The notes: a model not told the origin generated them from the sequence alone. DNA of 64,000 nt from Marsupella aquatica (GCA_973895155.1 OZ316891.1:7433808-7497807), one strand, 5' to 3'; positions 1 to 26,409 are shown, numbered from the stretch's first letter. Numbers and translations are program-made.

Positions 1-2148
1 TTGTACACAGGAACGGCAGTGTGCACCATGACGCTAGAACCGAAGGAACGATGCACCTGTCAGTACAAATGTTCGCGCTTATGGGATGGGTATGATTTTG
101 TGAGCCCAAGGAATCGAAGACGACATGCAAACTATGACAAGACAGGCAGGGTCATTCCTGCAAAGTTTTTAGTGGACCGTGGGCATCCGGATGGCCATGG
201 CCTATCGCATCAAGACAGTCATTCTGCTAGCTTCTTAGGTGTTCAAATGTCCCGACAAGAACACAGATATACGGCCCCAACTGTGTTGTACAGGGCACTT
301 ACAGGAGGAGACGGGAATGATGACGTTGGAAGAAACGATTTGCAGGACCTGGATGTTGATGGGATTGGTCAGACGCTTCCCATGCAGTATGGTATCCACA
401 TAATGCCTTCTAGAATACTGACCGTGGACGAAGCAATTTATCGACAGACTTGGAGATTACAATCAATGCTTGACGAGGCTAAAATGCCTCAGGCATTGCA
501 GGATAGCATTTTGAAAATGCTATTCGGGAAGATTCAGATTCCCCCATCTACAAATTTGACACCTTCACCCGACCCTCCATCCGACATGGCAAATGTAGGA
601 CTGGGCGCACTCCTGAGGCACGCTGGTGTGACGTGGGACGGAGGACGCCATGGAATTGATGCATTGTCATCATTCAAGGGTTTGTGTGGCACGTTTGAGG
701 CATATGGTATGCCAAAAACGCAGCGGTGGAGAATGTGTATTGGACAGAAGCCAAACTGGCATGCTCCCGTAGTCCTACCGTCGTCGCACCAAGATGACTA
801 CAATGTCCGAACTGGATTGAAGTGCCGTTGTTCAATCGCAGGGACGAAGTGGCATCTAGCCAGGGATTGTTTGCGTTGTTCGGAACGTTGCCCATTGGAT
901 GGTTGCAGCACGGCTCGCAAGGAGATGCTCCGGTTTGAATATTTCCCCATTGGTCCCATGTTGCGGAAGTTATGTAGCAGTCGATCTGTTTGTCATGAGT
1001 TCCAGGCAATGTGGAGGGACAAAGATAAGTGGTTTAAGAAGGATTCCATGCCCAGACCTGTGTACAAGGAATGGTGGGACGGCTACCGTGCTTCCGAGCT
1101 ATCCTACTTTTGGGACACTGGCACACAGTTTGAGATTCCCGTGTTATGCCGAAACTGTTATGCTTGTTGAGTCCTGAGTTGTTGGATACTGCCAACTAGG
1201 ATAATGTCAGCAAACAATACGACTTCCAATGCTCAGATTGTGGATCTCGAGTCACGGCCCCGAAACAATTTGCAAAGGTTAGTGATTTCTTCTTGCGTTA
1301 CTGTTGTTGCGCACTTTTGTATGACCAGGGTATGGTATGGGTATTTTTAGGGTATTTATGGGTTATGATCTAGAGTAACTTTTGTCTAACTAGTGTGACC
1401 CACCGCATGCAGGGTGATCCCCGAAATATTGCACTCATGGCACATTGGGATGGATTTCAGTCTGCCAAGACTGCCCACAAAAGCACCTGGACTGTAGAGG
1501 TCCAAGTTTTAAGCGCCAGGTCTCAAACCAAAATTCCACCTATCCCTGTTCTTTTTATCCCGCCATGTGATGACGACGACATAGGAAAAAAAAGCTGAAA
1601 TGCTTGGATGCTTTCTTAGAACCATTCATAAGAGAACTGGAGGAGTTGTTTGTGGATGGGATAGAGGTGGATTACAATTACCCTGTGGAATTATTGGCTG
1701 AAGAGGATAATGTACCGAATGACTCCAGGTGTGTGCTACGAGCACTGTTAGCAGTTTTCACTGGAGATCATCCCGCACAATGTAAATTTGGGGGCTGGAA
1801 TGTTACAGGTTATTCCGCTTGTAGGAATTGTAAAATGAGCACTCGATGGATGAAGTGCAAGTTTGATCATCCTCGAAAGGAGACTGACCAATCACAACCC
1901 CGAGGTTTTCTGGGAAGGGCTGTGTATGACAACAATAGGATGCAGATGAGATATCCACCACCTACACAGAAAATTGAAGAGGTGAGGGAGGCGGCCAGGA
2001 ACATGACCAGGGCAGGAACAACTGCAGAGAGGATGAAGATAAGCAGGGAGTGCGGGATTTCAAACATGACCAGGGCTTGGCGACTACATGAGCTTACTGG
2101 ATTTTGTTTGAGCAAGGATCTGGTGTATGATACAATGCATATCCTTGC
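1..2148 (+). pseudogene. CACTA/EnSpm (CMC)-type DDE transposase, 5' part
   Basis: Motifs GDPRNIALMAHWDGFQ, FLEPFIRELEEL, GDHPAQCK..G..GYSACRNC and VYDTMHIL. GT-AG intron 1278-1412. Stop at 1168-1170 and an A-run frameshift at about 1586-1593. Confidence 0.8.
2144..2148. repeat. 5-bp target site duplication CTTGC (second copy at 15702-15706)
   Basis: CTTGC immediately precedes TG at 2149 and immediately follows CA at 15701. Confidence 0.95.
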
Positions 2149-3539
2149 TGTCGTATAGTGCTAAGTATCAAAAGTGACTCTTCTCACCTAAAACCAGGGT
2201 TTCGATCCCTTTAAGAACAGATTTCAGAATGAATTGTATAACTTTTATCACTCCGAGTGATTTAGAGTCTTGAGCTCTATGTTGACTTCACTTCTCAATA
2301 AAAAAAATCGAATAAACAAACAACAAAGTAACTGAACTTCTGATTTATGAATTAGAGAAGAAATGAGTAAGGATTTAGAGACTACAAGCTGCTACTGCCA
2401 CTCCTTCAGAAAGGATTTGGGCTCAGTATAGACATGAAATCTATCTCATAATTCATCCATCTCACTCTTCAAAACACAAAGGTTAATGATAATGGAATTC
2501 TCAATCTGATGAAGCAGAAGCTTTCTGATTGCAAATGAATGATATGATTTAAAATGCCGTCAACATGGTTTGACATCAGCGATACGCAATTCAGTCAAAC
2601 TCTAAACCATATTCCAGAATCAAAGCAACAGTACTAACTACTCTGAGAATCAGAATTTACTTCTCATTTATCATTAACTATTCTTGAATTGGCTAGCGAA
2701 TCCCGACTCTGCAAGCAAGCCTAGCAGTGAATTCAATACGAGTTTCAGAAATCTGCAACTGAATTCAATCACCACAGGAATCTCTTGAATTCAATCTTAA
2801 CTTCAATCAATATAGCTTTACTTCCATACAAAACACTCACAGCATGCCTTGTTACAATGGAAGGAGGAGAAAACTATTCAGAAGACTCAATTCTGAATAC
2901 AGTATTAACTCTATTTCTCTCTACTTCAAATGAGCATTCTACTCTGTCTTATAAGTGCTGGAATCCTAAAATGGAGGAGGTAAGAACAGACGTGCCTTTC
3001 CAAGCTTAAAACTAAACAAGGGAGAAGCACAGCATAAGTACTTCAACAAGGGTGGTAGAATACTACTTTACTAGTAATCTACTTCAAAAACTAAGTGTTG
3101 AGCGGACGCTGCTAGAAGCGTCGGGAGAATCTGGACGCTGCTAGAAGCGTCTTAAGTAAAACCAACGGACGCTGCTCACACTGCTCACAGCGTCAATACT
3201 AGGGTGGACGCTGCTCACAGCGTCGTGTGTTGAAGCTGACGCTTTCCACAGCGTCGGTCGAAATCCTCATAGAGTCTTGGTGGCGGTCGGGCGCTGCCAA
3301 AAGCGTCATGAGGAGGTTGGACGCTTCCGCAGGGTCTTGAGTAAAAGAAACGGGCGCTGGTCACAGCGTCGGGCAAAGTACACTAGGAATCGTCAGGAAA
3401 GCCGGAGATGTCAAATATTTCTATAAGTGTCCAGAACAAGTAAATGTTGGCTGGAAGGTGTCTAAAGTGTAAGTAAATCTTGTGATATGCTAAAAATAAA
3501 CAAGTTTCCAGAAAAAATTGCAGGGACACCCATACCACA
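2149..3539 (-). repeat. 3' LTR (1391 bp)
   Basis: TGTCGTAT...ATACCACA, a direct repeat of 14311-15701. Only two differences seen by eye (G3333/C15495, T3452/C15614). Confidence 0.96.
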
Positions 3540-3557
3540 TAGCCCTCCACTTAAATT
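3540..3557 (-). promoter_or_regulatory. Polypurine tract (PPT)
   Basis: Minus strand reads AATTTAAGTGGAGGGCTA directly before the LTR. Confidence 0.8.
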
Positions 3558-3616
3558 TCGCCGTGTCCCCACAAGACATGACCGAATTGAATCAGAAGCG
3601 AGTGACATGTTCTTCA

Positions 3617-4093
3617 TTAATAATATTCTGGCTTAATAATCCAAGTAGTGCTCAAAATCATTGACGGGAGTTGGGAGATATCCGAATCCAGAATATAAAA
3701 ATCGAGGTCATGGAATTCTTCTCCGATCTGTATTGGGACTCCTTTAACTCTTCCCCAAAGATTAATGATTCGTCCATCGATTGATATCTGAGCAGATATC
3801 GGTTGTACTTCTTGATGAACAAATTGCTGGCACAGTCTGTGGGAGAGGAAATTAATTCGAGAGCCTGGATCAATAACAAAGTGTTGAATAGCATGTCCTC
3901 CCAGTTTGATCTTGCCTTCAAAGGAATGTTGGAAAGCACGGGGTAAAGAATTCCAACAATCCATAGTAGCTTTGATGTCCCACATGAGCAGATAAATATC
4001 AATTCGAAGGAGAAAGAAGGAAACAATTGCAGGATGCTGCAAAAGTAACGGCTTATATACATATAAATGACAACACCGTTTGATATCTCTCAT
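3617..4093 (-). CDS. Retropepsin-like (aspartic protease-like) domain at the end of the accessory region
   Basis: FVIDPGSRINFLS...GRVKGVPIQIG..LDFYILD...MILSTTWI pattern. In frame with ORF 4106-5899 across a single TGA. Confidence 0.55.
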   Translation of the reverse strand: MRDIKRCCHLYVYKPLLLQHPAIVSFFLLRIDIYLLMWDIKATMDCWNSLPRAFQHSFEGKIKLGGHAIQHFVIDPGSRINFLSHRLCQQFVHQEVQPISAQISIDGRIINLWGRVKGVPIQIGEEFHDLDFYILDSDISQLPSMILSTTWIIKPEYY

Positions 4094-4105
4094 AAATGGT
4101 GTCCT

Positions 4106-5899
4106 TCAAATCTGTGTCCTAGATAAAACACCTTGAATAATCACATCCGGATAAGAAGGAATAATAGGTAGGAACGCTAAACACCTAAGCGACTTGAACC
4201 CTTGGGAAGCCGGTAGCATACATTGTTTTGTAATCAACTGCTCCCTTAGCTTAACAAGCTTCTTCTCATATTTAATTGGAATAGCAAACCCACCAGGACA
4301 AACCCAAACATAGTATGGATAGGGCCATGGAATTTCCGGCACAAGGGGCGGAAATGGTGCTTGAGCTCGTCGAAGCATATACACCCAACACCAAATTTCG
4401 AACTCCGAAAACTTATGTCGTTTGTCCTTATCAATGGGAGGAACCGCCTTCCCAGGTTCATATGTGCGAATCAAACTACGAATCCTCGGATGGGATGTCA
4501 TTGGCAAAATCTGCTGCTGCTGCAAAATGCTCTCCATCTCCAGATGTCGAAAAGCTACTCGAAAATGTTTCTTCTCCCACCTGTGAATTGAAGCCAAATT
4601 AGGGATAGGATTTCGGGGTGGCAAATCCACTGTATGCCGAAGTCGAGGAGGTACTCTGATAATGCGAGGGTCTTCGTCTTCTTCTCCATCACTTGGTGCT
4701 CCTATCCAACGGAAAATTACATCTGGCATAGCGGAAGGAATCACTGACTCCTTAACTGGTCGAATTGGCAATGTAACATGAGACGAAGGAGCAGAAGGTT
4801 CGGGCTCCAGTGGTTCAAATTCTTCTCTTGCAACAGTAGTTGGTTGATCTGCAGTGGGATGCATTGGTACTAAAACAGGAAGTTCTTCTTTAAAATTATC
4901 GCTAGGTAAAGAGACTTCCTGGTTAGTTCGATCTGCCAAAAGTACAGGAAGGGGTAGCTCGTCTGTTCCGATAGGTGCTTCTCCCTGTTCAAAATCCTGG
5001 GAAGATGCTTCAGGAAAGATCTGTCGACTGATAGCATGGCGCAACCGTTTCCAAGATTTTCGAGTATACGTCACTGAAAACTCCTCCCGAATGTTTTTAT
5101 CCTTGTTTGTAGCCAATGAAACTGGTGCTGAGCTGGTTGTCGAAGCGGGTGTCTCGGGTACCAATATGGGTACAGATATACCCATATTACCAGATACCTG
5201 ATTGCGACTCGGAAAACCAGCAGAGCCTCCTTCAATCAACTCATCTTCAGGAGAAACCCATTTTACAGGCGGAAATGAAGGAGCTCCTATCGCGGCTATT
5301 GCCTCATCTAATTCCTTAGTTATATCCAAAGGAATCGATATGAGTGAACCAGGTGTAGACCAGGCAGGGTATCTTGCGACAGATTGGGGAGAAGTCACTG
5401 GTTCACCTACTTCGTCTATATCCACAATTGCATCCTCCGAATCAACTTTAACCAGCTTCACAATTTCTGAGCTTAATATTTCTGACTCCTGGACCAGAGG
5501 GATTTCACCTATATTTGGGCTAGAACTAAGAGAGTCGGACGAATCATACTCCTGTAAAGCCTGCAAAGCATCACTATTTGCCTCTATGGGAACCAAAACA
5601 GGGGTAGAAGTAAATCCATCATACTCGTCCTCAGCAGTAGAATGTTGAAGAGGTTCCCCTGAAAAACCTTCTTCATCCACCCTCACCTCATCTTCAACAT
5701 TCATCCGAGAAGCAGAATTATCCTGATCAACATCATAAATAGGCTCGGCAGCACAAGGTGAACACGAGAGTCGAGGTGACATAGAATGCTCCAACCCTGT
5801 TGGCATTGCTGAAGGAACATCTTCGGCAACTTGAGCCTCTCTTGGTTGGTGAAGAATCGGATCGTCACTCCCTTCAGCTGATGCTCTTGTCTCTTTCAA
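4106..5899 (-). CDS. Gypsy accessory ORF, 597 aa, acidic and Pro/Ser-rich, unknown function
   Basis: Long open frame between pol and the 3' LTR, same sense as pol. Its start overlaps the stop of the 260-aa ORF. Confidence 0.65.
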   Translation of the reverse strand: MKETRASAEGSDDPILHQPREAQVAEDVPSAMPTGLEHSMSPRLSCSPCAAEPIYDVDQDNSASRMNVEDEVRVDEEGFSGEPLQHSTAEDEYDGFTSTPVLVPIEANSDALQALQEYDSSDSLSSSPNIGEIPLVQESEILSSEIVKLVKVDSEDAIVDIDEVGEPVTSPQSVARYPAWSTPGSLISIPLDITKELDEAIAAIGAPSFPPVKWVSPEDELIEGGSAGFPSRNQVSGNMGISVPILVPETPASTTSSAPVSLATNKDKNIREEFSVTYTRKSWKRLRHAISRQIFPEASSQDFEQGEAPIGTDELPLPVLLADRTNQEVSLPSDNFKEELPVLVPMHPTADQPTTVAREEFEPLEPEPSAPSSHVTLPIRPVKESVIPSAMPDVIFRWIGAPSDGEEDEDPRIIRVPPRLRHTVDLPPRNPIPNLASIHRWEKKHFRVAFRHLEMESILQQQQILPMTSHPRIRSLIRTYEPGKAVPPIDKDKRHKFSEFEIWCWVYMLRRAQAPFPPLVPEIPWPYPYYVWVCPGGFAIPIKYEKKLVKLREQLITKQCMLPASQGFKSLRCLAFLPIIPSYPDVIIQGVLSRTQI

Positions 5900-6678
5900 T
5901 TCCGAACTTCACCCACCAGTTCAGGTTCCTCACAGTCGAGTATTGCACATAGCTCTACCACTGTGGAATTGGCTCGGACTTCTCGTACTTCAGGCATATA
6001 ATTTGCTTCACCGGTAGATGCTCTCTGATTGTTGCGATAAAAATCTTTTTCCAAGACAAGCAGACAGTCATACTTATGGTAAATGTGAGCTAAATAAGGG
6101 GCCAAGTAGGTACACCTTATTTTCCCCGTTTTCAGCCTGCTACGAAAATTTTTGACCTGAGTATGAATTACTCGGTGCAAAACCTTCGTCCAATTGATAG
6201 ACTGCGTCTGTTCTAATGAACAGATCACCGTTGCAGCGAACGAAAGAGTGATGCACGTCTGGCTTTCTGGGTAGAAAATTGGTGCCAGAAATCGAAATAG
6301 ACGCTGCAGAGAATTATCTAAGCAGTCCGCCGCTAGCCATCCATTCCGCCTCTTGAAAGATCCTGGAGCGAAGAAGGATTCTACATAAACCCGAGGCTCA
6401 CAATCAACCCTCTGTAAATCCTCGCCCTCCATCGGCGTCGAATAGACCTTCGCTATGAGCGCTTCAGTCCAAACACTGGGACGCGAGCGCACACCAATCC
6501 TTTCTTCAGCGTCCCAGACACCTTGATCGATAAGGCTGAATTCGCAAATCTTCCAAGGAAGTTGAAGCAGCTTCTTCAAGCCCATTTTTGCCAGAGCCGT
6601 CTTCAACTGCCGCCTATGCACTGCATTCGATGGAATGTCTGCGAGTATTGGTCGCGTCGTCAGCTCAGTCTCCGCCAT
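5896..6678 (-). CDS. Gypsy accessory ORF, 260 aa, TE-associated domain (plant-mobile-domain / Athila ORF-like)
   Basis: ATG-initiated ORF. Clearly homologous by eye to 39341-41173 (blocks LPW, RP..WT, CLD..L.R.F.FL.P..YPE, NW.K). Confidence 0.75.
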   Translation of the reverse strand: MAETELTTRPILADIPSNAVHRRQLKTALAKMGLKKLLQLPWKICEFSLIDQGVWDAEERIGVRSRPSVWTEALIAKVYSTPMEGEDLQRVDCEPRVYVESFFAPGSFKRRNGWLAADCLDNSLQRLFRFLAPIFYPESQTCITLSFAATVICSLEQTQSINWTKVLHRVIHTQVKNFRSRLKTGKIRCTYLAPYLAHIYHKYDCLLVLEKDFYRNNQRASTGEANYMPEVREVRANSTVVELCAILDCEEPELVGEVRN

Positions 6679-7065
6679 CGCGTGACTTGTTAGCTCCGTA
6701 AGCTCAGTGAGAATCGTGTTCCATAGTGAACTAGGGCGAAGCGCAACTGCTTACTCCTCAGCGTCCCGTTGAGCTGTCGCAATCCGCCATTGTACAAGAC
6801 GCCTAGTCATCGGCTCACAGCGTCTCATGCAACTGAACTAATACAAAAGCGGACCTCTGCACAACGTCCTTTGTAAACTAAGTGGACGCTTCCCCAGCGT
6901 CGAGTTACAATGGACGCTTTTCACAGCGTCCAATGTAAAAACTGAAAGTAACTAAAAAAAATAAAAAATAAAAATATGCCGAATACTTACTAGGGAGGGT
7001 CACTAATTCTAACTAAGTATAACTACCGCCCTCCACTTAAATTGCAACCTGTCCCAGGTGGAATT

Positions 7066-10038
7066 CTAAATGGAAGACTCATAGTACCGTTTAATCCTAA
7101 ACCCATTGATTCTAGTGTTAAGTGGGTGACCATCTAAGGTAGTCAATGAAACTGAACCATTATCCCAAATGTGTGTAACTCGGTAAGGACCAATCCAATG
7201 AGTATGAAGTTTCCCAAGAAATAGCATATAACGAGAATCAAAGACTAATGCTAAATCACCAACATCTAACTGCACTACGCGCAGCTTCTTATCATAAGCA
7301 AGTTTACGCTGGTTCTGAATGGTGACTGTATGGTCTAATGCTAAAAGTCTAACTTCTTCTAATTTAACAATATTGGAAAACTGATGTGAGAGACTATCTG
7401 AAGGAGAGAGTCGGTGTGGTACCAAGATACGTTCCGTTGGTAACGAAAATTCTATTGGAATAATACTATTCAGGCCATAGGTCAGATAGAAGGGGGTGTG
7501 AAGAGTTGTAATCTTCTCAGCGGTGCGGTAAGCCCATAATGCAGAATGGAGCTTCACATCCCAATCTGTCTTGTGAGATTCTACCATTTTATTCAGAATC
7601 TTGCCCATAATGCCATTAGCTCTCTCGGTTAAGCCATTAGCTCGGGGGTTGTAAGGAGTAGTTTTGCGATGCTTGATAAGATAAAGGTCAGTGATTAACT
7701 CAATAGTTGAGTTAATAAAATGCAAACCCCTATCGCTTACCAACTCCAAAGGACAACCAAACCGGGTGATAATGTGCTCAAAGAGAAATGCAGCTGCGGT
7801 TATAGCATCATTCTTGCGAGTAGCTTTCGCCTCTACCCATTTGGTGGCATAATCAGTGGCCAAAATAATATATTTGCTTCGGCTTTTCCGAGCTGCTGGA
7901 GAAATTGGGCCAATAAAATCAATCCCCCATTTCTCAAATGGTGCCAACGGAAGGATAGGCGTAAGAGGCCATTTGGAACTAGCAGTGGGCTTCCCGATCC
8001 TTTGACAGGGATCACAGGTCTTAATAAAATTGTAAGTATCTCGATGCATAGTAGGCCACCAGTATCCAGCATCCAAAATTTTCTTAACTGTGGTATTCAC
8101 AGCATAATGCCCACCGGTTTCTCCTGAATGTAAAGCTTCAATTACTTGGGGAAGTTCCCTATCCTCTAGACAACGTCGTAATTGTTGATCAGGACCTTGT
8201 TTAAACAAAGTGCCCCGAATAATGGTATAGGGACCCACCTTATGAGCAAAGACAGCTCGTTCTTCCGCATTAAAGCCTTCAGGGAACGTTCCATGAAGCA
8301 GCATGTGCACAATATTAAAATATCGAGAAGACTCCCCTTCAATGTGCCACAAATGCTCGTCAGGAAATTCATCGGAGAGATTATGCTGATTCTCCGGACC
8401 AGGTAACCGAGATAGGAAGTCTGCATTCTCATGATGTTTGCCAGGTCGGATATGAACTTCATAATCAAATTCTTGGAGTAGTAAAACCCAGCGGGCTACT
8501 CGTCCTGAGAGATCCACTTGGTTAACCAAATATTTTAAGGAATTATGATCAGTGTGAAAAGTAACCTGATACCCCAACAAATAGTGACGAAATTTCTTAC
8601 ACGCAAAGACGATGGCCAAAGCTTCCCGTTCAGTGACGGAGTAGTTTTTCTCGGCTGCACTCATTTGGCGGCTGGCATAGTAAATTGGATGGTCACGGTT
8701 TTCCACATCCTTCTGACTGAGATTAGCTCCAATGCAGAACGCAGAAGAGTCAATGAAGACATGAAACTTCTTAGTCCAATCTGGGGGTGACAAAATAGGT
8801 GCAGAGATTAACCGATCCTTGAGCAACTGGAATGCTTGCTGCCGCTCCTCATTCCATGTATATTCCACATCACTTTTTAACAGTTGGGTTAAGGGTAAGG
8901 CAATATTAGCATGTTTATAAATGAACCGACGATAATACCCCACATGTCCCAGAAAAGCACGAAGCTGCTTTAAATCGGTCGGTGGTTGCAACTCCATAAT
9001 TACTCTAACCTTCTCTGTATCAACCTCAATGCCGCGTTGTGAAATAACATGGCCTAACAAAATTCCCTCCTTCATACCAATAAAGCACTTTTCTGGATGA
9101 AGACACAACTGAGCCTCTCTACACTTCTGAAATGTCTTCTCCAAATGGACGAGGTGTTCAGCCGCTGACCCGTAAACACAAAAGTCGTCAATAAAAATCT
9201 CCATGAAATGCCGCAAATATTCTTGAAAAATAATCATCATAATGCGCTGAAAAGTACCCGGGGCATTACACAGCCCAAAAGGCATCATGGTAAATGCATA
9301 TGTACCCCAGTCGGTGGTGAACGTAGTCTTGTCGCGATCCTCCTTCCGAATGGACACCTGGTTATAACCAGAGTACCCATCTAAAAAACTGTATAACTCA
9401 TGCAAGGCCACTGAATCAAGTACCAGATCAATAAATGGCAAAGGATAATGATCTTTCCGAGTGGCAGCATTCAACTTCCGGAAGTCTTGACAAACGCGAA
9501 TTTTCGTTTTACCATCGGGTCCCGGCTTTTTGGGGACAATGACAATTGGTGAGACCCATTCACTACTCAAGACCGGGTAGATAAATCCAGCAGTCGTGAG
9601 CTTGTCCAACTCGTCTTTAACCAGGATGGAATATTTGGGATTCAAACGGTACTGTCTCTGTCGGACAGGTACTGCTCCTTCCATAAGGTCAATACGATGT
9701 TTGCCCAAATGTGGATGGATACCTTTTAAATCAGAATGACTCCAGGCAAAGACATCTTTATACTGGGTTAATAAACTGATATACTGTTCCCGTAGCTCTC
9801 CTTCGATATGCTTACCAATATTCAAAAACTTGCCTGGCTCAATTTCGATTTTCTGACAAGCTTTTGGATCCACAATTCCATCCGTGAGGTTTGCCGGCTG
9901 AAGTCCAAGTTTGGATACTTCTGGTGCAAATGGCTCAAGGGTAGCTGACACTCCCATATCATGGTGTAAATCCCTATTAGCCTCAGTATTAGGAGGTTCG
10001 TCTGCTGCTGGGCCCACTTCCGATGACGAAGTTAATTG
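7066..10038 (-). CDS. pol: Pol (RT - RNase H - integrase), intact, in frame with gag-PR
   Basis: RT: RVCQDFRKLN, LDGYSGYNQ, MPFGLCNAP, FIDD. RNase H: FIDSS, EREALA, TDH. Integrase: H..GH..C..C, IDFIG, SDRG, NGLTER and a GPY motif. Confidence 0.95.
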   Translation of the reverse strand, partial: QLTSSSEVGPAADEPPNTEANRDLHHDMGVSATLEPFAPEVSKLGLQPANLTDGIVDPKACQKIEIEPGKFLNIGKHIEGELREQYISLLTQYKDVFAWSHSDLKGIHPHLGKHRIDLMEGAVPVRQRQYRLNPKYSILVKDELDKLTTAGFIYPVLSSEWVSPIVIVPKKPGPDGKTKIRVCQDFRKLNAATRKDHYPLPFIDLVLDSVALHELYSFLDGYSGYNQVSIRKEDRDKTTFTTDWGTYAFTMMPFGLCNAPGTFQRIMMIIFQEYLRHFMEIFIDDFCVYGSAAEHLVHLEKTFQKCREAQLCLHPEKCFIGMKEGILLGHVISQRGIEVDTEKVRVIMELQPPTDLKQLRAFLGHVGYYRRFIYKHANIALPLTQLLKSDVEYTWNEERQQAFQLLKDRLISAPILSPPDWTKKFHVFIDSSAFCIGANLSQKDVENRDHPIYYASRQMSAAEKNYSVTEREALAIVFACKKFRHYLLGYQVTFHTDHNSLKYLVNQVDLSGRVARWVLLLQEFDYEVHIRPGKHHENADFLSRLPGPENQHNLSDEFPDEHLWHIEGESSRYFNIVHMLLHGTFPEGFNAEERAVFAHKVGPYTIIRGTLFKQGPDQQLRRCLEDRELPQVIEALHSGETGGHYAVNTTVKKILDAGYWWPTMHRDTYNFIKTCDPCQRIGKPTASSKWPLTPILPLAPFEKWGIDFIGPISPAARKSRSKYIILATDYATKWVEAKATRKNDAITAAAFLFEHIITRFGCPLELVSDRGLHFINSTIELITDLYLIKHRKTTPYNPRANGLTERANGIMGKILNKMVESHKTDWDVKLHSALWAYRTAEKITTLHTPFYLTYGLNSIIPIEFSLPTERILVPHRLSPSDSLSHQFSNIVKLEEVRLLALDHTVTIQNQRKLAYDKKLRVVQLDVGDLALVFDSRYMLFLGKLHTHWIGPYRVTHIWDNGSVSLTTLDGHPLNTRINGFRIKRYYESSI

Positions 10039-13000: not shown

Positions 13001-13092
13001 AATGTGCGAGGGGTCACTACTAATTTTGCAGCATCCGAATTACTGGAGGTCTTGGTAGGTTTTCTTTTATTCGGTGGATCTCCCTCAGACAT
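10039..13092 (-). CDS. gag: Gag plus aspartic protease, 1017 aa
   Basis: Retrotransposon gag core (A.KWY...W..LK.AFL), three CX2CX4HX4C knuckles, and protease motifs VDGGASVNLI...LLGRPWL. Confidence 0.92.
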   Translation of the reverse strand: MSEGDPPNKRKPTKTSSNSDAAKLVVTPRTLLPEFQSPGAPAPGSVWKQVGSIQEASGSLERPTSTRPLFVNLRSGPKLIGSQKTKLRQQTVRSVNQIDSGVDSTTERALSHTEGRNLGLPENTVAESLAQDNSVDLSQLDNPEPLSEAGGSSSSETSSSSGLGSPNPFATRSALPFVTLLAPTTMARNNVRYDRFFGTSKEDAEVYLKEFEAAAASNGQSQDAEKANLFGGLMKKGAQKWYDRFPDKQDWGKLKAAFLAKYKEEGAAARAFARISHLHMKKHGSVRKYADKLLDLVDQYNPATSKSTIKDWFINGLPSRIARYVRREGGTTLEEVQEAAQKYVDSEISERKRVKKDLKKDKRKKKKTSRSKSDSETESSESSTSEEDESTNSSTSDSSSSSSDSESVAPKKKKSSVKGNNKVPNQKKMDRMMEELSGQLSKLNVNIAAVKPVRRLPAPMRMNVWCTRCSQQGHYPNECPTLRTPVNYVDGQEEAEEYEYDPAYTVQTAPPGQYFPPPPASRPTWGPPKPTFNKPTSRPPMGPPGGYPPRGMPRQKGACWNCGQPDHYSPQCPYPKQEVGYTPVCGNCGKEGHLPVECPNPAKPRLMVRFAQEPVKEASRPEAKIRMVYSEEMEQCSFIQHMDVNRVELKPDSLFHQPVSGVVPDVLVSHLVKPEVVGMPNDRVQNRDKVLTNIYATTRSKKKETKKHEHQKVAKAPKDEGRKPCKEGLDKEDDPAYDRYDPKYFLPDISLEVKDHLEELVKEQVQSPNPPVVVKAKEPLKNPGYDIVEDVKNHPAHITIGELLQDNPVYRRQLRSLLAGKRRKKKLPSVDVLRTEWEDKGPMEIEVQIQGCVIRRVPVDGGASVNLITQSAAFNLGFTKFEPTPKILRMADQSRVVPIGKLTKVETLIAGVPFLLDYVVINPEIPSSFPVLLGRPWLYKAQVQVNWQSQELSFGKPKVTVSWVPEPHFGETQTDDGYTSDFSTSSLVLQPLEFELEEVRYLEVYLSDAPIKPTGPS

Positions 13093-14286
13093 CCCTCATT
13101 CTCCAAGCACGGGTGATTTTGAGACACCAGACCCGCTCCTCAGGAGTCTTTATGCAAGGAGTCACCATTTAGGTGCGACGTTATCACCCCACTCCGGGAG
13201 ATATGAACCTGCTTCCTCAAAGTGACTTCCCGTAGCGTCGTTCAACATCCCTTGCATGATTCCTCCCCCTTGCTATCCCGTAGCTAATACTTCCCTTCAG
13301 TGACCAGCCGAGATTCTAAAACCTCGTTTTCTCTGGTGCGTCCTTCAGGTTGAGACGCGGAAAGGCACACCAGAAGCGTCGCGCACGTTGGTTCGTCACA
13401 GATTCCTCCGGACGCTGCTCACAGCGTCCACTGGGATCGGACGCTACTCGAAGCGTCCTGACTTGCGGAATCTTCTGGGACGAATCGCATTGGACGCTCT
13501 TCGCGGCGTCCTTCCTTATCTCCTTTACGGTGGCGATTACTGGAACCGGGCGTTCCCCATAATCTCCGACTTCCTTCACCCTGAAATTTCTTTACCACAT
13601 GGTACGCTACACTAGGCCATCCTACTAATCAGACGTCTAACTCCTTCCTAATCTTCTACGCAATTCCTGGTGCATGATTCTTTCCGCTAACTCCCGAATG
13701 GAAATGACTAAATATCTCTCCTGTGTGATCCTACCATTCAGCCTTAATATTACTAAATGCAAACTTTCATCTTCCCACCAGGTGATAGTTAACCAATGTA
13801 TGCCATTCCTCCCTCTCAGGCTCAGAACCCAAGAATTAACATAACGATTCCTCAAATTCCTAATTCTTAATGTTCCCAAAGATCGGATAGGTGGCATCGG
13901 TCACACGAACCAGGATGGTTGGACAATTTTACAAATCATACGTCCCGAGCAACGTTAGAATAACTTCACTTGTCACTCAAAGTGTCTTTGGTGTCTTCGA
14001 CTATCTCCAAAGCAACTTGACGAGCAACAGCTCCTCTCTGTGAGGCCTTTTCTAGTGGGAGGGCGGTTTCTTCTCTTAAGTTTGGTACCACAAATTTTTC
14101 CAATACTCTTAAGAGAGCTTCCGGGGCGCTTTGGATAGAGTATGGCATCACCTCGAAATGGAAGCTCTTCATCTTTTTAACTGGAGTGATGACGCATCTT
14201 CACAATTATAGTAGAACGTGAATTCCTCTCCCGTCTAGCTCCTTCTGGCATACACTGCCTGTACGTCAATTCAATCTTAAATTCGT

Positions 14287-14304
14287 TCCCCGGCAGCGGC
14301 GCCA
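14287..14304 (-). promoter_or_regulatory. Primer binding site, tRNA-Asp/Athila type
   Basis: Minus strand TGGCGCCGCTGCCGGGGA, 6 nt downstream of the 5' LTR; resembles the Athila PBS TGGCGCCGTTGCCGGGGA. Confidence 0.85.
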
Positions 14305-14310
14305 AAAAGA

Positions 14311-15701
14311 TGTCGTATAGTGCTAAGTATCAAAAGTGACTCTTCTCACCTAAAACCAGGGTTTCGATCCCTTTAAGAACAGATTTCAGAATGAATTGTA
14401 TAACTTTTATCACTCCGAGTGATTTAGAGTCTTGAGCTCTATGTTGACTTCACTTCTCAATAAAAAAAATCGAATAAACAAACAACAAAGTAACTGAACT
14501 TCTGATTTATGAATTAGAGAAGAAATGAGTAAGGATTTAGAGACTACAAGCTGCTACTGCCACTCCTTCAGAAAGGATTTGGGCTCAGTATAGACATGAA
14601 ATCTATCTCATAATTCATCCATCTCACTCTTCAAAACACAAAGGTTAATGATAATGGAATTCTCAATCTGATGAAGCAGAAGCTTTCTGATTGCAAATGA
14701 ATGATATGATTTAAAATGCCGTCAACATGGTTTGACATCAGCGATACGCAATTCAGTCAAACTCTAAACCATATTCCAGAATCAAAGCAACAGTACTAAC
14801 TACTCTGAGAATCAGAATTTACTTCTCATTTATCATTAACTATTCTTGAATTGGCTAGCGAATCCCGACTCTGCAAGCAAGCCTAGCAGTGAATTCAATA
14901 CGAGTTTCAGAAATCTGCAACTGAATTCAATCACCACAGGAATCTCTTGAATTCAATCTTAACTTCAATCAATATAGCTTTACTTCCATACAAAACACTC
15001 ACAGCATGCCTTGTTACAATGGAAGGAGGAGAAAACTATTCAGAAGACTCAATTCTGAATACAGTATTAACTCTATTTCTCTCTACTTCAAATGAGCATT
15101 CTACTCTGTCTTATAAGTGCTGGAATCCTAAAATGGAGGAGGTAAGAACAGACGTGCCTTTCCAAGCTTAAAACTAAACAAGGGAGAAGCACAGCATAAG
15201 TACTTCAACAAGGGTGGTAGAATACTACTTTACTAGTAATCTACTTCAAAAACTAAGTGTTGAGCGGACGCTGCTAGAAGCGTCGGGAGAATCTGGACGC
15301 TGCTAGAAGCGTCTTAAGTAAAACCAACGGACGCTGCTCACACTGCTCACAGCGTCAATACTAGGGTGGACGCTGCTCACAGCGTCGTGTGTTGAAGCTG
15401 ACGCTTTCCACAGCGTCGGTCGAAATCCTCATAGAGTCTTGGTGGCGGTCGGGCGCTGCCAAAAGCGTCATGAGGAGGTTGGACGCTTCCGCAGCGTCTT
15501 GAGTAAAAGAAACGGGCGCTGGTCACAGCGTCGGGCAAAGTACACTAGGAATCGTCAGGAAAGCCGGAGATGTCAAATATTTCTATAAGTGTCCAGAACA
15601 AGTAAATGTTGGCCGGAAGGTGTCTAAAGTGTAAGTAAATCTTGTGATATGCTAAAAATAAACAAGTTTCCAGAAAAAATTGCAGGGACACCCATACCAC
15701 A
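14311..15701 (-). repeat. 5' LTR (1391 bp)
   Basis: Direct repeat of 2149-3539, adjacent to the PBS. Confidence 0.96.
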
Positions 15702-15706
15702 CTTGC

Positions 15707-17671
15707 CTTGTGCCTTTTCAAGAAATACTGCGAGCTTCTAGTTTCGAGTGTTCCCCGTCAACATCAAAAATAGTTTGAAGATGCTCTGGAGGAGGTTACT
15801 GCTAGGAAACCGAGAGGTTTTGATGGAAGGTGGCCTAAACAACCTTTTGAAAGATTGGGATACTTCAAGGCTGAAGAGTTCACGCGATTCATATTGTATT
15901 GTCTGCCTCATATCCTCCAACAGATGGACATTAGTGTCCACTCTGACCTTGGGACGCTTGGGATTCTTTTGGTAGAGATTGCACGCCTCTTTTATATCAG
16001 AAGTAGACAAGAGGGTTGGACTACAGCCACATTGAAAAAAGGCAGGTCTCTACTGGCTTCTTGGAGAGTTCGCTCAGAAGAGGCTTGGGGCCCAAATGGA
16101 GCAATTCTAGAGCATGTTGCTGGTGAGTCATTTTGTTTACACTTGCTACATGACCATGATGACAGTGGGTATTCATTGTTGGTCAATCCATCATTGCACT
16201 GAGGTGATGTTCTAATCCCAATGTGTTTTGATCCCAATTTTTAGGGAGCGGAGAGATATTTGATGGGATAGAACGACATGGCCCACACTATGTTTATTGG
16301 TGCTACCGCTTCGAGAGGATGGTATCAGACTATGGACGCACCAAAACAAATCAGAAGGACCAGGAAGTCACTTATTCTCTTCATTTTGCACGACGCTTTT
16401 TCAAAAAAATATCGTCGTACATTTGGGAAGATGACGATGGACTTTTCCCTCATCAGAGGGCTTTGGAGAAAGTTCATGCATCCCTACGTGTCCCTGCGGA
16501 GCATCGTAAGGAGCACAGGTGCAGAGTCACTGTACCACCATCTGAATGCCCACACTGGCACGGGAATTCGGTGCCAATAGTTTCAAGTCAAATTCTAGCG
16601 ATGGAATTGTGGGATAGTATGATATCCTCTGTGGAGTCATATGGTTGCAAGCACATGTTGTTGAGCAAAGGGGTTGGCATAGGCTCAAACAGGAAGCTGA
16701 CAAAGAAACTGGGGCTGTCCGCCAGGATGTCATTGAAGTAGCATTGGACAGATGTTGGAGTATTCAACATCAGTGAGGACCACAAAATTAGTGAATCTTG
16801 CACTCCATTGCGATCAGCTGTGTGGAGAGCTTAAGTGTACAGGCCTGGCAATCACGTTGTTGTACTGGTAGATGGGAGTACAGATGCTTCACATCCTCAA
16901 AACTGGAAAGCAGTACTCCAAAAGATTTTCATGCACGAATTCGATGGCCACATGGACATATTCTTTGAGGCGGATTGGTATAAACAACAGTATACACAGG
17001 ATCCTCGGCAAAATTTACTGTCTTGGGAACGAGATGAGTATTCCCTGTTTACTCTTTTGGAACCAAAAGTATATCACGCACATGGCAACAACTGTAGGCC
17101 TATGTCAAGAATTCTACATAAGTTCTTCCCAATTCGAAGAGGTGGGAGGGAGGTTGTAGCCTTGGAGATTGGAGATACTTTAGTATGGGAACTCCCTACC
17201 ACAATTGCAAACTGCCCTCCTTTCCCAGAGGTAGGGGACATAATGACTGCAATAGCGGACTCACTTTCCGTCCCTGACCTGTGTGTTGTAAGGGAAGTCC
17301 TCCTTCCCAGGCGCGATGCGGCAACGGAAATGCAAGCGGGGGATGTAGGAGTGGACGGTGCTTCTGACGGGGAGGAGGAGGAGGAGGAGGGAGGGGATGA
17401 CATGGCAGAATCGCACAATGCAAATGATACTGAGAAGGACCTCGGGAAGGTTGGTGTGAGCTGGTTGTCTGTACAGGGTTCTCGGTCAAGTTGCCCAATC
17501 TACAAGGCAGTGTCACAAATTGATGAACACATCACCTTTCAAAGATTAGTTGCGTTGAGGCTTGATTTTCGTGCAATTGGACTTCACCATGGTATCCCTG
17601 TACGGTGGAATACCATGGAAAGTCCCAAGTACAAAAAAAAGAAAGATACTATGGGATATGACAACACTTGA
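15707..17671 (+). pseudogene. CACTA/CMC transposase, 3' part, with a BAH-like C-terminal segment
   Basis: Removing the Gypsy and one TSD copy restores DTMHILALCLFKKY...GYFKAEEF. After intron ~16122-16244 comes HGPHYVYWCYRFER, the CACTA WMYPFER-type motif. In-frame stops at 15771, 16739 and 16832. Confidence 0.8.
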
Positions 17672-18356
17672 GAGGCGCCGTTTTGTCAATAACCAAATAC
17701 TGACCAGGATGCAGACCGTAGGATGTATGAGATGCAGGTCAGATGTGAGCCTGTGATGGTGACACTATGGTGCTTCGCACGGGGTATGATCGGGGACGAC
17801 ACGGGTCACAAATATCATTGGATTCTGGGTCGGACGTGACATAATGGATGGGTATTACCAGGTTACTTGGGAACGTGATAAAATGTACGTTGGGGGAGTG
17901 AAAGGGCGGTGCCACCGATCGGAGACAGAATCTTTGTTGTGAGATCTACTACTGAAACTGTAGTGACTAAATGATGCATGCCACTACGCACATGAACGCC
18001 CTATGAGGAATTCCTTATAAGCTTTGGGCAATGGTGCGAGCTCCTGAGCTCCACTCTTTGATTGTGTAGGTTTCGTAAATCTTTGTGGCTGACAAGTCTG
18101 CCATTGGATAACACTTGGGGTGTTAGCGACGGAAGCAAGTATCGACGAGCACGGGGTGACATTGGAGGATTGGTGAAAGTATGGTTCGTCGACATGATTG
18201 TCCAGTGCCGGTCGCATTGTTGATGCAGAGCGACAAGGATATCACAGATCGTATGTACCCCTCTTTCACTCAACTCCTTTGGTTCTTAATTCCGCATGAA
18301 GTATATTGATCGATTGTTAGAATGGCGCAACTAAGGCCTGCTTTGTTTGTACAGTC

Positions 18357-21300
18357 GTGACGGAGACAATTTGGAAGTCATGCTCGGGGAGGGTACTACG
18401 GCATTATCTAGGGATGGCCCCTACAGACCATAATTTAGCTAGAAAAGCTGGTTTGGTTCCATGTTTTGAACTCGACTGGCCCAGAGTTGCAATTCCTGCT
18501 ATAAAGGAGTTCGCAGTAGGGTATGATCAAGGTCAAAACTGTGTGTCATTCCGGGGTGCAACTTACACATTCAACAGAGAGGTATTGCGAGCTGCATTTG
18601 CCCTTCCGTCTGGAGAATGGGCCCGATTTAAACCTGGGTTGGTCCAAGGTCAACTAAATTCCATGTTTTGTGCCAAGACGAAAGGCAATCCATATAGTCT
18701 AGACAAAATCACTGCGCCATATATGCAGTGGTGTGGGATAATTAGGGCGATTTCTGAATTGCTCTTAGGCAAGAGAAAACCCACTCAAGTCACCTCAAAA
18801 GACATGTGGGTATACTGGGCGTATTGGTGGGATATGATTAGGGTACATGATCATTTTAGAGGAGCTGAAACTCCCGTGGTGAAGCCCGATTGGGCACATT
18901 TGGTGTACGATAATCTGATGAGTGAGATCCTCAGGTTAAAGTCACACCTATCGAAGAATGGTGTCGTAGACAAACGACTTCCTTGCTACTGGGGCACTGC
19001 TATAACGCAGATTCTTGTACACTACGGGTATTCACTGGAGGAGCTTATGGTTGAACAACACGAAGATGATCATGAGGAGGACGACAAGGAGGAAGGGGAC
19101 AATGGCTCACAAGAGGACAAGGACGGGGACAGTGGCTCAAAGGAGGACGAGGAAGGGGATGACGGATCACGAGAGGACGAGGAAGGAGAAGATGGCTCAC
19201 GAGAGGACGAGGAAGGGGATGGTGCGTCTGACGGTGAGGGGCAGCCATCGGAGGTTGCACCCCAATTCTCCAGGGATGAACAAAAATGTCCTCAGGGTGA
19301 GCACAAATCGCCGCCCTCTGTGCCAGAGTGCATGCGTGTTCTATCATAGCACATACGTGCGCTAGAGGTTGATCTTGCAGAAAAATCGGACATGCTACGA
19401 GAAGCAGTGGAGAATCATAAAAAAATGGTCCTCGATTTGATGAAAGAAAACGACAGACAGAGAGTCCGCATATTAGAATTGGAAAGGCAGGTTGGGTTGC
19501 ATTCAGAACAAGTTGGCAGTAAGACATCGAGTGGATAAGGTGAGAGCGGAGGTGACGAGAGATGTTGTGAGGTTCTGGTAGGTCTTGGTGCTAGGGTACA
19601 TGCAGGTTATGATGCAGAGGCATCACAGCGTAGCCCAATTTCAGAGTTACCGCCAATTTCTGGTGTTCCAGCTATAGTAGAGGTACCAACAGCACCACCA
19701 GCAGAAGCAGGTACTTTCCCAATTTATTATCCTGGTGTTCCAGCTATAGTAGAGGTACCAGTAGCAGCACCAGCAGAAGCAGGTACTTTCCCAATTCATT
19801 ATCCTACTTCAAAGATACAGCGAGAGGATTCTATGTCGAGTGGAGGTGACTCACCAGTTTTGGTAGAGTTATAGGCAGTCGCACCACCAGTACTGGCAGA
19901 GGTACCGGCATCAGAAGAAGAGATGTCACTTTTAGAAGGAGAGGCACCAAATGTTGCACCAACATCAAAAGTAGAGGTCTCAGCTACAGAGGAGGACAAA
20001 TCGTCGGGTGCAATTGCATTAGAAGTACCAGGGTCACCTCCGATTTCTGTTCTATTTCATGTTCCAACTAAGAGTCCGGGATGGGAGGCTAGGACGAGTC
20101 ACATTTCACGACAACCAAATTTTCCTCGTGCTTCAAAGAGAGGGCGAGAGGACTCTATTCCGAGTGGCAGTCACTCACCAGCAAAGAGGAGGGCTATCGA
20201 AGTGGAGGAAGAGGAAGAGGTAGAGGAAGAAGAAGAAGAAGATGAAGTGGAGGATGACGAGCATTCAGAACAAGACATTCACTGGGAAGAGTGTGCCACA
20301 GAGAGTGGAAAGGTTAGCAATTTTTTTTCCTTTGTTGTGTGATTACTGTTTTTTCAGAAACAATGTTCAAGCATATCTAACTTGGCTGTGAGCGGGATCC
20401 GCAGATTGATATCCAAGGGTCTCACTTGACAGAGGAGGCATGCCCTCCACCTGGTACAATGACTACAGCTCTATATCCACACCAACGGATTGGTCTTGCA
20501 TGGATGTTGGAACGCGAATCCGGAAAAAGCTCTCCAATTGGTGGGATGTTGGCAGATGACCAGGTACAAAAGCCCCCAAATTAAGCCGAAGTCGCACTCA
20601 TTATTTTCATTCAGCGAGATACTTTGGGGGTATTTTTGGAGTATGTTAGGGGTACGCGCGCACCTTGTCTGCAAGTGAGTGGGTCCCTGACCATTTTCTT
20701 GGCTTGGATTTTTTTAGGGAATGGGGAAAACCATGCATGTCATAGTACTATTTCTCGCGAATCGCCCTCATAAGTGTGGGCCAACTCTAGTTGTTTGTCC
20801 AGCCAGTGTGGTGATTCAATGGGGCCAAGAAATAGCTGCAAGGACCTCCAAGCTAGCAAAAGTGAAGGTCCTCCTCTACCACAACAAGAGGAATAAAGAC
20901 ATCAACTTTATTTCAAGCCATGACGTGGTTGTCACTACGTACTCAATCATGACAGGGGAGTCTCCCATTGCTCCAAAGACGTCCAGCGTGCCAAAAGGGA
21001 GTATGAAGAGACCTGTAAAAAAACCTAGACTTGCAGGTCCACTGTTTAAGATTAATTGGCTTAGAGTAGTCCTGGATGAGTGTCATGTCATGAAAAATAA
21101 AACTAGTCAAAATTTCAAGACCTCGCGTTGTCTCAAGGCAGAGAGGAGGTGGTGCCTAAGCGGTACACCCATACAGAACGAGGCTTCTGATCTGTTTCCT
21201 TACTTCAGTTTTCTGAGGTATTATCCTCTAGGAGAGTGGAAGGAATTCTTGCAGTTAAAGAAGCTGCTGAAGACAAGGCCAAAGATAGCGAATGGCATCC

Positions 21301-23092
21301 TCTCAAAACACTTGGTTGCGATTGCGCTCAGGAGAGACAAAAGTAAGCGTGCATGCATCATGGTAGAGTTCACTTTGTTTAATCCCAAGCCTAATTTCTT
21401 TATCAATTGTGCATTTACCCTGCCACTGTGCTTACATGCAGGCATACTCCCACTGCCCCCTAAGACGATCGAGGTGCAAATTGTTGAATGGAGAACACAG
21501 CACGAACAAAACGCTTATTTTGATCAAGAGGAAAAGAGTAAGGAGTTATACAAGGTACGTAAGGCTCTTAATAATCCCCAATGTTGAAGACGTATGAGAG
21601 TTCAATTTGATCCCTTGAAGGTGTCTGTTCGGTGGCAATTAATGTGCCTGTAATGTTGTAGGAATTCCGTGACGCTGAAAGAGGTGCCTTATCGAATGTG
21701 TTGAGCGTTCTGCTCCGGTTGAGACAATTTGCAGTGCACCCGAAACTTCCTTCCTTATGTAAAATTTGCAAAGAGGAGATCGGGAACAAAGTGCAAAGAA
21801 CGCCTCTTAGTGAGCCTCAACGAGCCCGACTCGTGTCAGAGTTTCAGCAATTGAAGATTGGAAGTGCTTGCGTGGACTGCAAGGTGAGTACAGTCACTTT
21901 GTGTATGGGGTATGATTGGGGTATGATTGAGGTATTTCAGTTACGTGCTTTGCCTAACAATTTCTGCACGCACTCACTTTAACGGTTGGATTGTGCAGGG
22001 GGGCTTGATTGGAAGTCCATTTCAGATTTCTGGCTGTGACCATGTATACTGTGGCATTTGTGCAATAGACCGGGAAGCTGGAACCTTCAAATCGGCAAAA
22101 TGTTCAAAATACGTGACAGCCCAGGTCCTATACAGGCCAGCTGATTTGAGGCTAATGAATGGTGGTGCGGAGTCAAAAGGGAAGGCGCGAAGAGAATATG
22201 ATGTCCGACACCCACCTTCTCCAAAATTTGATGCAGTCTTGGAATACCTGAAGTCAATTCCGCTGGACACTACAAGATAGGGCAGCAGCGAAAGCTTTGT
22301 GCCCAGGCAGAAGGCTCTTGTTTTCTCACAATGGACTTCGTGTCTCGACATGCTTGAGCCACACATTCTGAAGCCTGGTCTAAAGTTCACAAGGATTGAT
22401 GGAGGAATGAATTCCAATGTCAGAGAACAAGCCTTGAATGATTTCAAGATGACCCCAGAGGTACAACCGTCATTATCCGTCCAGATCGGTGTCTGTATTT
22501 GTTCAAAGGGTAAACTCTTTATATTCTAATTAAACTATTTCTACTCATTTCATGCAGATCAGCATTATCCTCTTGTCCTTGATGGCAACGAACACAGGAC
22601 TCAACATCACTGAGGCTACACATGTTCTTATGGTAGACGGGTGGTGGAATCCCACGATAGAGGACCAGGCCGTCGATCGGTCACATCGTATAGGACAAAC
22701 AAGGCCGGTGAAAGTCGTCAGGTTTATCGCCAAAGATTCGATTGAGTTGAAGATTTTGGAGCTGCAGGTAAGATTAGAAGTGCTTGCGTGGACTGCAAGG
22801 TGAATAAAGTCACTCTGTGTATGGGGTATTATTGGGGTATTATTGGGGTATTTCAGTTCGCGTGCTTTGCCTAACAATTCCTGCACGCACTCACTAGTAA
22901 TGATGAATTACGAATTCCATATATGTGGTCTCTAATTGTACGCATGTTGCATGTTTTGTGCAGAACAAAAAATGAGTGATGATCAGGGACATCATGTATG
23001 GCTGTGCGACCGGGAAAAAAGATAACATGGAACAAAATCTGGAGTTCATACTGGGAGAGAATCGGCAGCAGAGGTTCAATGCATCAGAGTAG
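18357..23092 (+). pseudogene. Multi-exon RAD5/16-family SNF2 ATPase with RING finger, N-terminally fused to a TE-associated domain, acidic repeats and a coiled coil
   Basis: Predicted exons ~18355-20312, 20405-20563, 20718-21342, 21442-21554, 21662-21883, 21999-22460, 22558-22767, 22964-23092. They give GGMLADDQ|GMGKT, LDECH, WCLSGTPIQN, LLRLRQ, RING CVDC..CDHVYCGIC, VFSQW, RIDG, GLNITEA and WWNP..EDQAVDRSHRIGQ. In-frame stops at 19347, ~19536, ~19872, 22278 and 22973. Confidence 0.85.
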
Positions 23093-24977: not shown

Positions 24978-25031
24978 GGGACAAGTTTGGGACAAACTTT
25001 AGGACAAGTTTGGGACAAACTTTAGGACAAG
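24978..25031. repeat. Short tandem repeat, 22-bp unit GGACAAGTTTGGGACAAACTTTA-like, about 2.4 copies
   Basis: Read directly from the sequence. Confidence 0.8.
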
Positions 25032-26329: not shown

Positions 26330-26409
26330 CCAATTTTAGTTTCAGCTTTTTACTAGGTTACCCCGCATTCTGAGACTTATTACAAACCAGCTCAATACCC
26401 ATGCATTGC

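Follow-up and report, generated by a model that had tools for sequence, protein, structure and literature searches.

A CACTA/EnSpm-like transposon of Marsupella aquatica with a SNF2-RING chromatin remodeller gene as its probable cargo

Results

Copy evidence and the right boundary of the element

The left 23.7 kb of a 64,000-nucleotide stretch of the Marsupella aquatica genome (GCA_973895155.1 OZ316891.1:7433808-7497807; hereafter the window) are a single decayed copy of a CACTA/EnSpm-like DNA transposon, interrupted by a young 13.6-kb Ty3 retrotransposon. Downstream of the transposase, on the same strand, lies a gene for a SNF2-RING protein, an ATPase of the chromatin remodeller type with a RING domain between its two lobes, and this gene is very probably cargo of the repeated mobile element. 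A first-pass annotation, made from the sequence alone, had proposed the cargo status, and three results bear it out: a depth plateau shared by both genes, a contig that bridges them, and an EnSpm-type end 594 bp past the SNF2 stop.

Public sequencing contigs supplied the copy evidence. Six runs from four studies (X1 to X6) cover part of positions 15710-25400; contigs of X1, X2, X3 and X6 were aligned to 15000-29500, and those of X1, X3, X4 and X5 to 21600-23745. Contig depth serves here as a rough proxy and not as a copy number. In X1, six element contigs have depths of 198-265, whereas two contigs from the flanks, which match the window exactly, have 24.8 and 23.6, and the depth over the transposase, spacer, SNF2 gene and 3′ tail is ∼8-11 times that of the unique flanks. 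When 15968-23711 is divided into 16 bins, the values for the same run are 7-13 times those of the flanks (median 10) and pass from one gene to the other without a step; one of its contigs (depth 198) spans 17431-19688, taking in the transposase stop and the spacer and running into the second gene. Single contigs reach 820-2778 versus 104-142 in X2 and 1288-1736 versus 62-98 in X3, which corresponds to ratios of ∼6-28. Both a single-copy SNF2 gene and copies that lack it had been named as outcomes contrary to the proposal, and the contigs of the best run, X1, displayed neither.

The X1 family contig stops at 23686. Beyond this position two X1 contigs run on into different DNA, and contigs of the flanking repeat that have different DNA before 23687 number three in X1, seven in X3 and nine in X4. 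The right terminus at 23686 reads GTG-3′, which is the EnSpm terminus as described in the accessible text of PMC12730594. Taken together, the flat depth plateau, the bridging contig and the exact GTG end argue for a SNF2 gene located within a multi-copy element and against a gene of the host next to it. The visible part of the element therefore extends over 1..23686 (+ strand; 10,128 bp once the nested Ty3 is subtracted, with the left end before base 1), and the extent of 1..23092 given in the first-pass annotation falls short of this end. The 3′ tail with the right terminus (23093..23686, +) contains three GGGTA on the minus strand, and a dense subterminal array is absent from these last 594 bp. 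We rejected two other candidates for the right end: 23-bp tandem repeats and a drop in guanine-cytosine content near 25030, which belong to a separate high-copy repeat, and a forward CACTACAAG near 23474, which is oriented the wrong way to mark a right end, falls within the shared sequence and is taken as chance. Outside the element, the very high-copy host repeat that received this copy occupies 23687..25046 (no strand assigned). This 1.36-kb stretch is present at several hundred to more than 1000 times unique depth in X1, and similar sequence at both of its ends suggests a tandem unit or a cut long terminal repeat (LTR).

The transposase and its class

The transposase frame begins before base 1 and ends at the stop 17669-17671, with two introns (1278-1412 and 16123-16244). 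Its 5′ part (1..2148, +) contains the first two acidic motifs and a CxxC, with frameshifts near 1164 and 1590 and a stop at 1197. The frame is interrupted after base 2148 and restored when the Ty3 element is skipped, continuing in the 3′ part (15707..17671, +), which has the W.Y.FER motif and stops at 15771, 16739 and 16832; the lesions of this copy are two frameshifts, four stops and the Ty3 insertion. Pfam identifies Tnp2 (PF02992) at 1574-2155 (E 2.3e-8, 33.9 bits against a cut-off of 28.6). The exon borders are backed by six relatives (49-68% identity) whose open reading frames (ORFs) start and end near the same points and in which the acidic motifs are conserved. Among relatives with an organism name, the closest come from Riccia sorocarpa (42-44%) and Adiantum (43%). 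A scan of Joint Genome Institute (JGI) metagenomes found three short loci (1.0-3.6 kb) with the transposase only, which are too short for a linkage test, and a scan of viral contigs for related loci found none.

The CxxC reads CRNC and follows the second acidic motif; a CxxC after the second acidic residue is a feature of the CMCT clade according to the accessible text of PMC12730594. The earlier label of a CMC-type transposase fits PF02992, the acidic motifs and the CxxC, but the strict H(3-4)H of CMC transposases was not found in that stretch of our transposase model, where a single His, just before an intron, is conserved in the six relatives. Because this strict motif is absent and the left end, with which a pair of inverted 5′-CAC..GTG-3′ termini (terminal inverted repeats, TIRs) and a 2-3-bp target duplication would be seen, lies outside the window, we file the element as EnSpm-like and not as a formal member.

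Structure of the SNF2-RING gene

The distance from the transposase stop to the next conserved exon (18355) is 683 bp on the same strand, in agreement with the ∼0.7 kb estimated before, and this inter-gene spacer (17672..18354, +) likely contains the unmapped first exon or exons of the second gene. A gene model from ATG 18414 has eight exons, seven GT-AG introns (92-196 bp) and 1272 codons, with zero frameshifts and five internal stops. The eight exons originally described thus join in frame, but homology in the first exon reaches back past ATG 18414 as far as a splice acceptor at 18352-18354, which brings the number of exons to nine or more. The second gene thus starts no later than 683 bp after the end of the transposase frame.

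The predicted protein has an N-terminal globular domain (18355..19043, +; 228 aa), followed by acidic repeats, a likely coiled coil and a low-complexity linker (19044..20312, +; stops at 19347, 19536 and 19872, and a possible 66-bp intron at 19540-19605). Lobe 1 of the SNF2 ATPase (20405..21554, +) is encoded by exons 20405-20563, 20718-21342 and 21442-21554, and the inter-lobe RING (21662..22110, +) is split by the intron 21884-21998. The Helicase-C lobe and tail (22111..23092, +) comprise the rest of exon 21999-22460 and exons 22558-22767 and 22964-23092, with stops at 22278 and 22973. The ATPase occupies the last 640 residues, matches PF00176 and PF00271 in Pfam, and contains helicase motifs I, Ia, II, III, IV, V and VI. 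A full set of motifs with an inter-lobe RING had been reported; both are present, except that the RING of this copy has seven of eight ligands, the seventh being Phe here and Cys in aligned contigs of other copies. The ligands align with those of a Ceratodon homologue, and the Pfam RING match, which covers a half-exon only, has an E of 0.013.

A phase-matched GT-AG intron (20313-20404) joins the N-terminal and ATPase frames, and on this reading of the frames the N-terminal domain and the ATPase are likely to form one protein. No TnpA-type Pfam family was found in the ORFs scanned, and the SNF2 gene occupies the position in which a TnpA-type gene is usual, though not universal. Intron 7 of the gene contains, at 22770-22895, a second copy (92-97% identical) of the exon 5/intron 5 junction 21854-21978.

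The N-terminal domain and the GGGTA motif

Modeled from 23 sequences, the N-terminal domain (18360-19043) gives a predicted local distance difference test score (pLDDT) of 88.7 and a predicted template modeling score (pTM) of 0.86, whereas the single-sequence fold is poor (pLDDT 43). We found 21 relatives among 1.84 billion representatives, and the named organism among the ten that were looked up is the liverwort Calypogeia fissa. Pfam finds nothing in the window's N-terminal domain, and Foldseek against viral models gave no match at E ≤0.001. A profile search of PDB sequences returned weak coiled-coil matches only, all outside this domain, and a profile of the N-terminal domain had no match among the accessory ORFs that belong to the window's retrotransposons (best E 1.5). 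As background to the comparison made below, PMD and the DUF1985 domain of VANC are structurally alike according to the accessible parts of bioRxiv 10.1101/2024.09.27.615353 and PMC13547354.

The non-coding DNA of the element is rich in a short motif. The 2,395 bases of non-coding DNA in the element contain GGGTA 19 times, compared with 4.0 in dinucleotide shuffles (none of 500 reaches 19), and the motif ranks first of 487 5-mers there. It is present in 9 of 11 segments, namely both transposase introns, the spacer, five SNF2 introns and the 3′ tail, at a density of 7.9 per kb in non-coding versus 1.0 in coding element DNA and 1.6 elsewhere in the window (0-2.3 per kb in other individual parts). 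Two introns contain 11-bp tandem repeats of a GGGGTAT motif (21906-21935 and 22822-22852, +), whose unit number varies between copies. The claim that introns of both genes are rich in GGGGTAT survives for three of the seven SNF2 introns and, for the GGGTA core, across both genes, but for neither of the two transposase introns, where the sequence is GGGTAT. VANC binds short motifs in fast-changing tandem repeats within the introns and spacers of its own element, as reported in the accessible text of PMC5735166.

Relationship to CHR27/28

Named database matches to the SNF2 protein are mostly CHR27/28-like, and the best match among the fetched homologues is CHR27 of Eutrema (36.5% over 643 aligned residues, E 1.6e-115). 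The affinity to the CHR27/28 branch of RAD5/16-type proteins suggested at the outset is supported in that the best matches are CHR27/28-like throughout. Three ORFs among 83 matches cover the same SNF2 exon at 54-59% identity, while all others are at or below 45%. These three ORFs and the window protein form one clade (100/98) and have a DECH motif in common; at such identities the lineage must have been conserved well beyond this transposon family. In a tree of 558 columns and 18 rows, which contained no true RAD5, RAD16 or SHPRH rows, the window protein falls among red-algal and green-plant homologues (93.7/96), its exact place being unsupported, on a terminal branch of 2.03 compared with 0.48 for Riccia and 0.36 for Ceratodon. 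Two exon borders coincide with those of the CHR27-like ORFs P0138 and P0141, and these common borders point to capture at the DNA level. A second pair of very long-branch SNF2 sequences, P0139 and P0146, has a DECQ motif and could be another element-borne lineage; the pair joins the window clade (98/96), a position flagged as a meeting of long branches.

Decay of this copy

To describe the decay we hand-picked sites among the best-supported differences listed, at which nearly all X1 or X4 depth shows another letter. Of 20 such majority differences in coding sequence, 15 affect the encoded protein, and 14 are C>T or G>A changes on the side of this copy, as would be expected if both genes decayed neutrally once the element had inserted into methylated DNA. 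Three stops could be compared with other copies: two in the SNF2 gene are C>T (CAG and CGA) and the third, at 16832 in the transposase, is G>T (GAA); the remaining six are not among the best-supported differences listed. Decay of both genes through C>T changes at CAG and CGA, as first described, thus holds for two of the three checkable stops, but not for 16832 or for the two transposase frameshifts. Stops 22278 and 22973 and the RING Phe are absent from the main contigs of X1 or X4. Among the minority differences listed, five of nine are synonymous, a small sample.

Discussion

A possible self-targeted remodeller and its alternatives

The SNF2 gene has probably been kept for a function. The best explanation, in our view, is a self-targeted remodeller that opens the chromatin of its own element, although we hold this to be evenly poised between right and wrong. 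Under this explanation a host CHR27/28 (FRG)-like ATPase gene would have been captured, introns included, and would then have evolved fast. By analogy with VANC, the N-terminal domain, taken to be VANC/PMD-like, would bind the GGGTA repeats of the element, the SNF2 motor would then move or strip nucleosomes along it, and the opened chromatin could allow silenced copies to be transcribed and the transposase to gain access to the ends. Circumstantial support for the inferred desilencing role comes from the N-terminal domain, which is of an accessory type, and from the abundance of the motif in non-coding DNA. More specific, and tentative, is the idea of a bryophyte CACTA-like lineage in which a VANC-like reader is fused to a captured FRG-type motor, yielding a one-protein, sequence-addressed opener of GGGTA-tagged DNA; a silencing enzyme of the host would thereby have become an anti-silencing factor of the transposon, driven by an ATP-dependent motor of its own.

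Several observations weigh against cargo status, against the proposed role or against the single protein. Host FRG1/2 promote silencing, which is the opposite of the role proposed here. Neither for the SNF2 protein nor for the N-terminal domain could a relative be located next to a transposase, and because the left end falls outside the 64-kb window, its TIR and the target duplication are not visible. Besides being only a proxy, depth is uneven in some runs: the X2 bins over 19840-23227 (850-1700) lie below those over the transposase and spacer (3200-6400; 57% of X2 read), and in X6 one transposase bin is at 820 compared with 0.5-20 over the second gene, so that copies or related families without SNF2 may exist; moreover, X1 may be the source sample of the window itself. 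The C at 22973 is missing from 27-49% of the depth in X2, X3 and X4, and other copies may therefore share this stop. A stand-alone ATPase gene could begin at an ATG at 20459. As described above, the transposase lacks the strict H(3-4)H, and since one motif-rich intron partly duplicates another, the GGGTA counts are not fully independent. As for the N-terminal domain, Transposase_32 (PF20167) is touched by only 1 of 23 family members, below cut-off (E 0.0046); the Atlas leads to ATHILA, PMD, Transposase_32 and DUF1985 all stay under 0.9 (0.81-0.86); and Foldseek with the N-terminal model gave no PDB match at E ≤0.001, in a library that perhaps lacks the VANC entry.

The SNF2-RING gene could also be true cargo that serves transposition or repair instead of desilencing, which we think unlikely: a Rad5-like translocase equipped with a RING ligase would clear the ends or the target, dismantle the transpososome, or steer gap repair that restores the donor. 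The cargo evidence fits such a role too. Rad5 has fork-remodelling activity, and RAD5 is the second-best solved-structure match and the only one of the top matches aligned over most of the exon. The scanned ORFs of the second gene are also free of any TnpA-type Pfam family, and maize TnpA, the usual second protein, is needed for transposition according to the accessible part of bioRxiv 10.64898/2026.08.24.746577. However, the nearest named relatives are CHR27/28, which the accessible text of PMC7865151 ties to methylation and chromatin, and the motif is scattered over introns and spacer and not concentrated at the visible end. It is improbable that the gene is passive luggage, a host CHR27/28-like gene transduplicated and copied without benefit. 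The retained introns, the two exon borders that match P0138 and P0141, and the long branch would all suit that history, but the main contigs keep full ATPase motifs and a full RING despite ∼36% identity to the nearest named homologue, the relatives at 54-59% retain the same motifs, and the synonymous share among the few minority differences (5/9) also speaks for retention. We give a similarly low chance to a decoy or self-limiting factor that competes with host FRG in RNA-directed methylation or keeps its own element methylated. Derivation from the FRG/CHR27/28 group and the modest copy number are in its favour, as is the reported requirement of that group for RNA-directed DNA methylation, going by the title of a 2014 study by Groth. 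A pure decoy, however, would have no need of the catalytic motifs that are retained, and a global block of this pathway would be costly to the host, unlike the sequence-specific systems described in the accessible text of PMC5735166.

Two further alternatives are very improbable. The second gene might be two unfused accessory genes, both cargo, consisting of a VANC-like coiled-coil protein and a stand-alone SNF2 gene from ATG 20459; this ATG is in frame right before the first conserved ATPase block, the Ceratodon homologue begins at the same place, and all 21 relatives of the N-terminal domain have at most 479 aa. The phase-matched intron that links the frames argues otherwise, most of these relatives are single ORFs on short contigs, with four of the five examined ending in apparent splice-donor read-through, and such a split would alter the anatomy, not necessarily the function. 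Just as remote is a host SNF2 gene beside the transposase that was multiplied with it by segmental duplication. The unseen left end and target duplication would allow for this, but the shared sequence ends exactly on GTG inside an unrelated high-copy repeat with other DNA beyond, the non-coding motif is common to both genes, and the divergence of the protein far exceeds that of bryophyte CHR27/28 genes.

Comparison with known systems

Like EnSpm/CACTA elements (CMCT; TnpD and TnpA), the element has a Tnp2 transposase, a CxxC, a GTG-3′ end and a second gene downstream on the same strand; it differs in that this second gene encodes a SNF2-RING ATPase without a TnpA-type Pfam match, in the missing strict H(3-4)H and in the lack of a dense subterminal array in its last 594 bp. 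TnpA provides sequence-specific anti-silencing and relies on host demethylases, as stated in the accessible part of bioRxiv 10.64898/2026.08.24.746577. The organisation also resembles that of VANDAL elements with VANC (DUF1985/DUF287), in which an accessory gene lies by the transposase and a tandem motif in introns and spacer varies in unit number between copies. As in VANC, a globular domain is followed by a likely coiled coil, and the weak Atlas leads point to DUF1985, PMD and ATHILA. This is a resemblance of organisation; the transposase belongs to another superfamily, and the accessible texts of PMC5735166, bioRxiv 10.1101/2024.09.27.615353 and PMC13547354 describe no ATPase for VANC. With Arabidopsis CHR27/CHR28 (FRG1/2), the protein has in common a DDQG-type motif I, the inter-lobe RING and two exon borders, but it differs in its long branch, DECH instead of DEAQ, an unrelated N-terminal domain and its location inside a repeated mobile element.

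The fungal EnSpm, ESTA and Plavaka elements that carry TET/JBP are likewise CMCT cut-and-paste elements with an intact epigenetic enzyme, which the accessible text of PMC12730594 proposes to aid escape from methylation-based silencing. Those elements are fungal, however, with a dioxygenase as cargo, and SNF2 is unmentioned in the main text of that paper. Domain fusions of SNF2_N with transposons occur among 823 candidate fusions (accessible part of bioRxiv 10.1101/2021.11.30.470311); these are gene models and not bounded elements, CACTA is unmentioned in the main text, and related cases may be found in Supplementary Table 6. A search of full-text literature, with most subscription journals, Repbase and Dfam outside its scope, listed no paper that presents an SNF2-bearing CACTA or Plavaka element in its title or the opening of its abstract. 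Whatever its function, we found no earlier case in these searches of a plant cut-and-paste element that has a complete SNF2-RING gene, introns included, as fixed cargo.

The plant anti-silencing proteins VANC and TnpA are DNA-binding factors. How silencing is lifted after binding is posed as an open question in the accessible text of PMC5735166. If the self-targeted remodeller is correct, a remodelling motor from the silencing pathway itself would be a direct, one-protein answer to the release of silencing, and would offer a natural design for a sequence-targeted remodeller. The family appears young, so an intact copy may exist.

Other elements in the window

The Ty3 LTR retrotransposon nested in the transposase (2149..15701, −) has LTRs at 2149-3539 and 14311-15701, each 1391 bp long with 2 mismatches between them, and is flanked by a 5-bp target duplication. 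The gag ORF (1018 codons) and the pol ORF (990 codons), both counted from stop to stop, adjoin in the same reading frame, divided by one stop codon; downstream of pol on the same strand lie two more ORFs (5896-6750 and 4106-5908) without a Pfam match.

A decayed LTR-type retroelement at 29369-36762 (+) has a piece of C-5 cytosine methylase (PF00145, E 1.7e-5) before its reverse transcriptase, and its last ORF encodes a PHD finger (E 2e-11); it is thus a second element of the window with chromatin-related cargo. Upstream of it, high-depth repeats at 26415-27068 and 27584-28067 consist of 73-bp tandem units and are possibly its LTR or leader. A Copia element occupies 42823-47145 (+); before it, at 39341-41218, the opposite strand has broken ORFs for which Pfam gave no significant match. 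An apparent multi-exon host gene lies at 49500-53900 (−), where the three ORFs scanned gave no significant Pfam match, and a tandem array at 54239-54806 has 57-72-bp units with a 133-bp higher-order period. Finally, a 922-codon ORF at 58433-61201 (−) without a Pfam match covers a long repeat that is very G-rich on the + strand; its product is proline-rich and extensin-like in composition.

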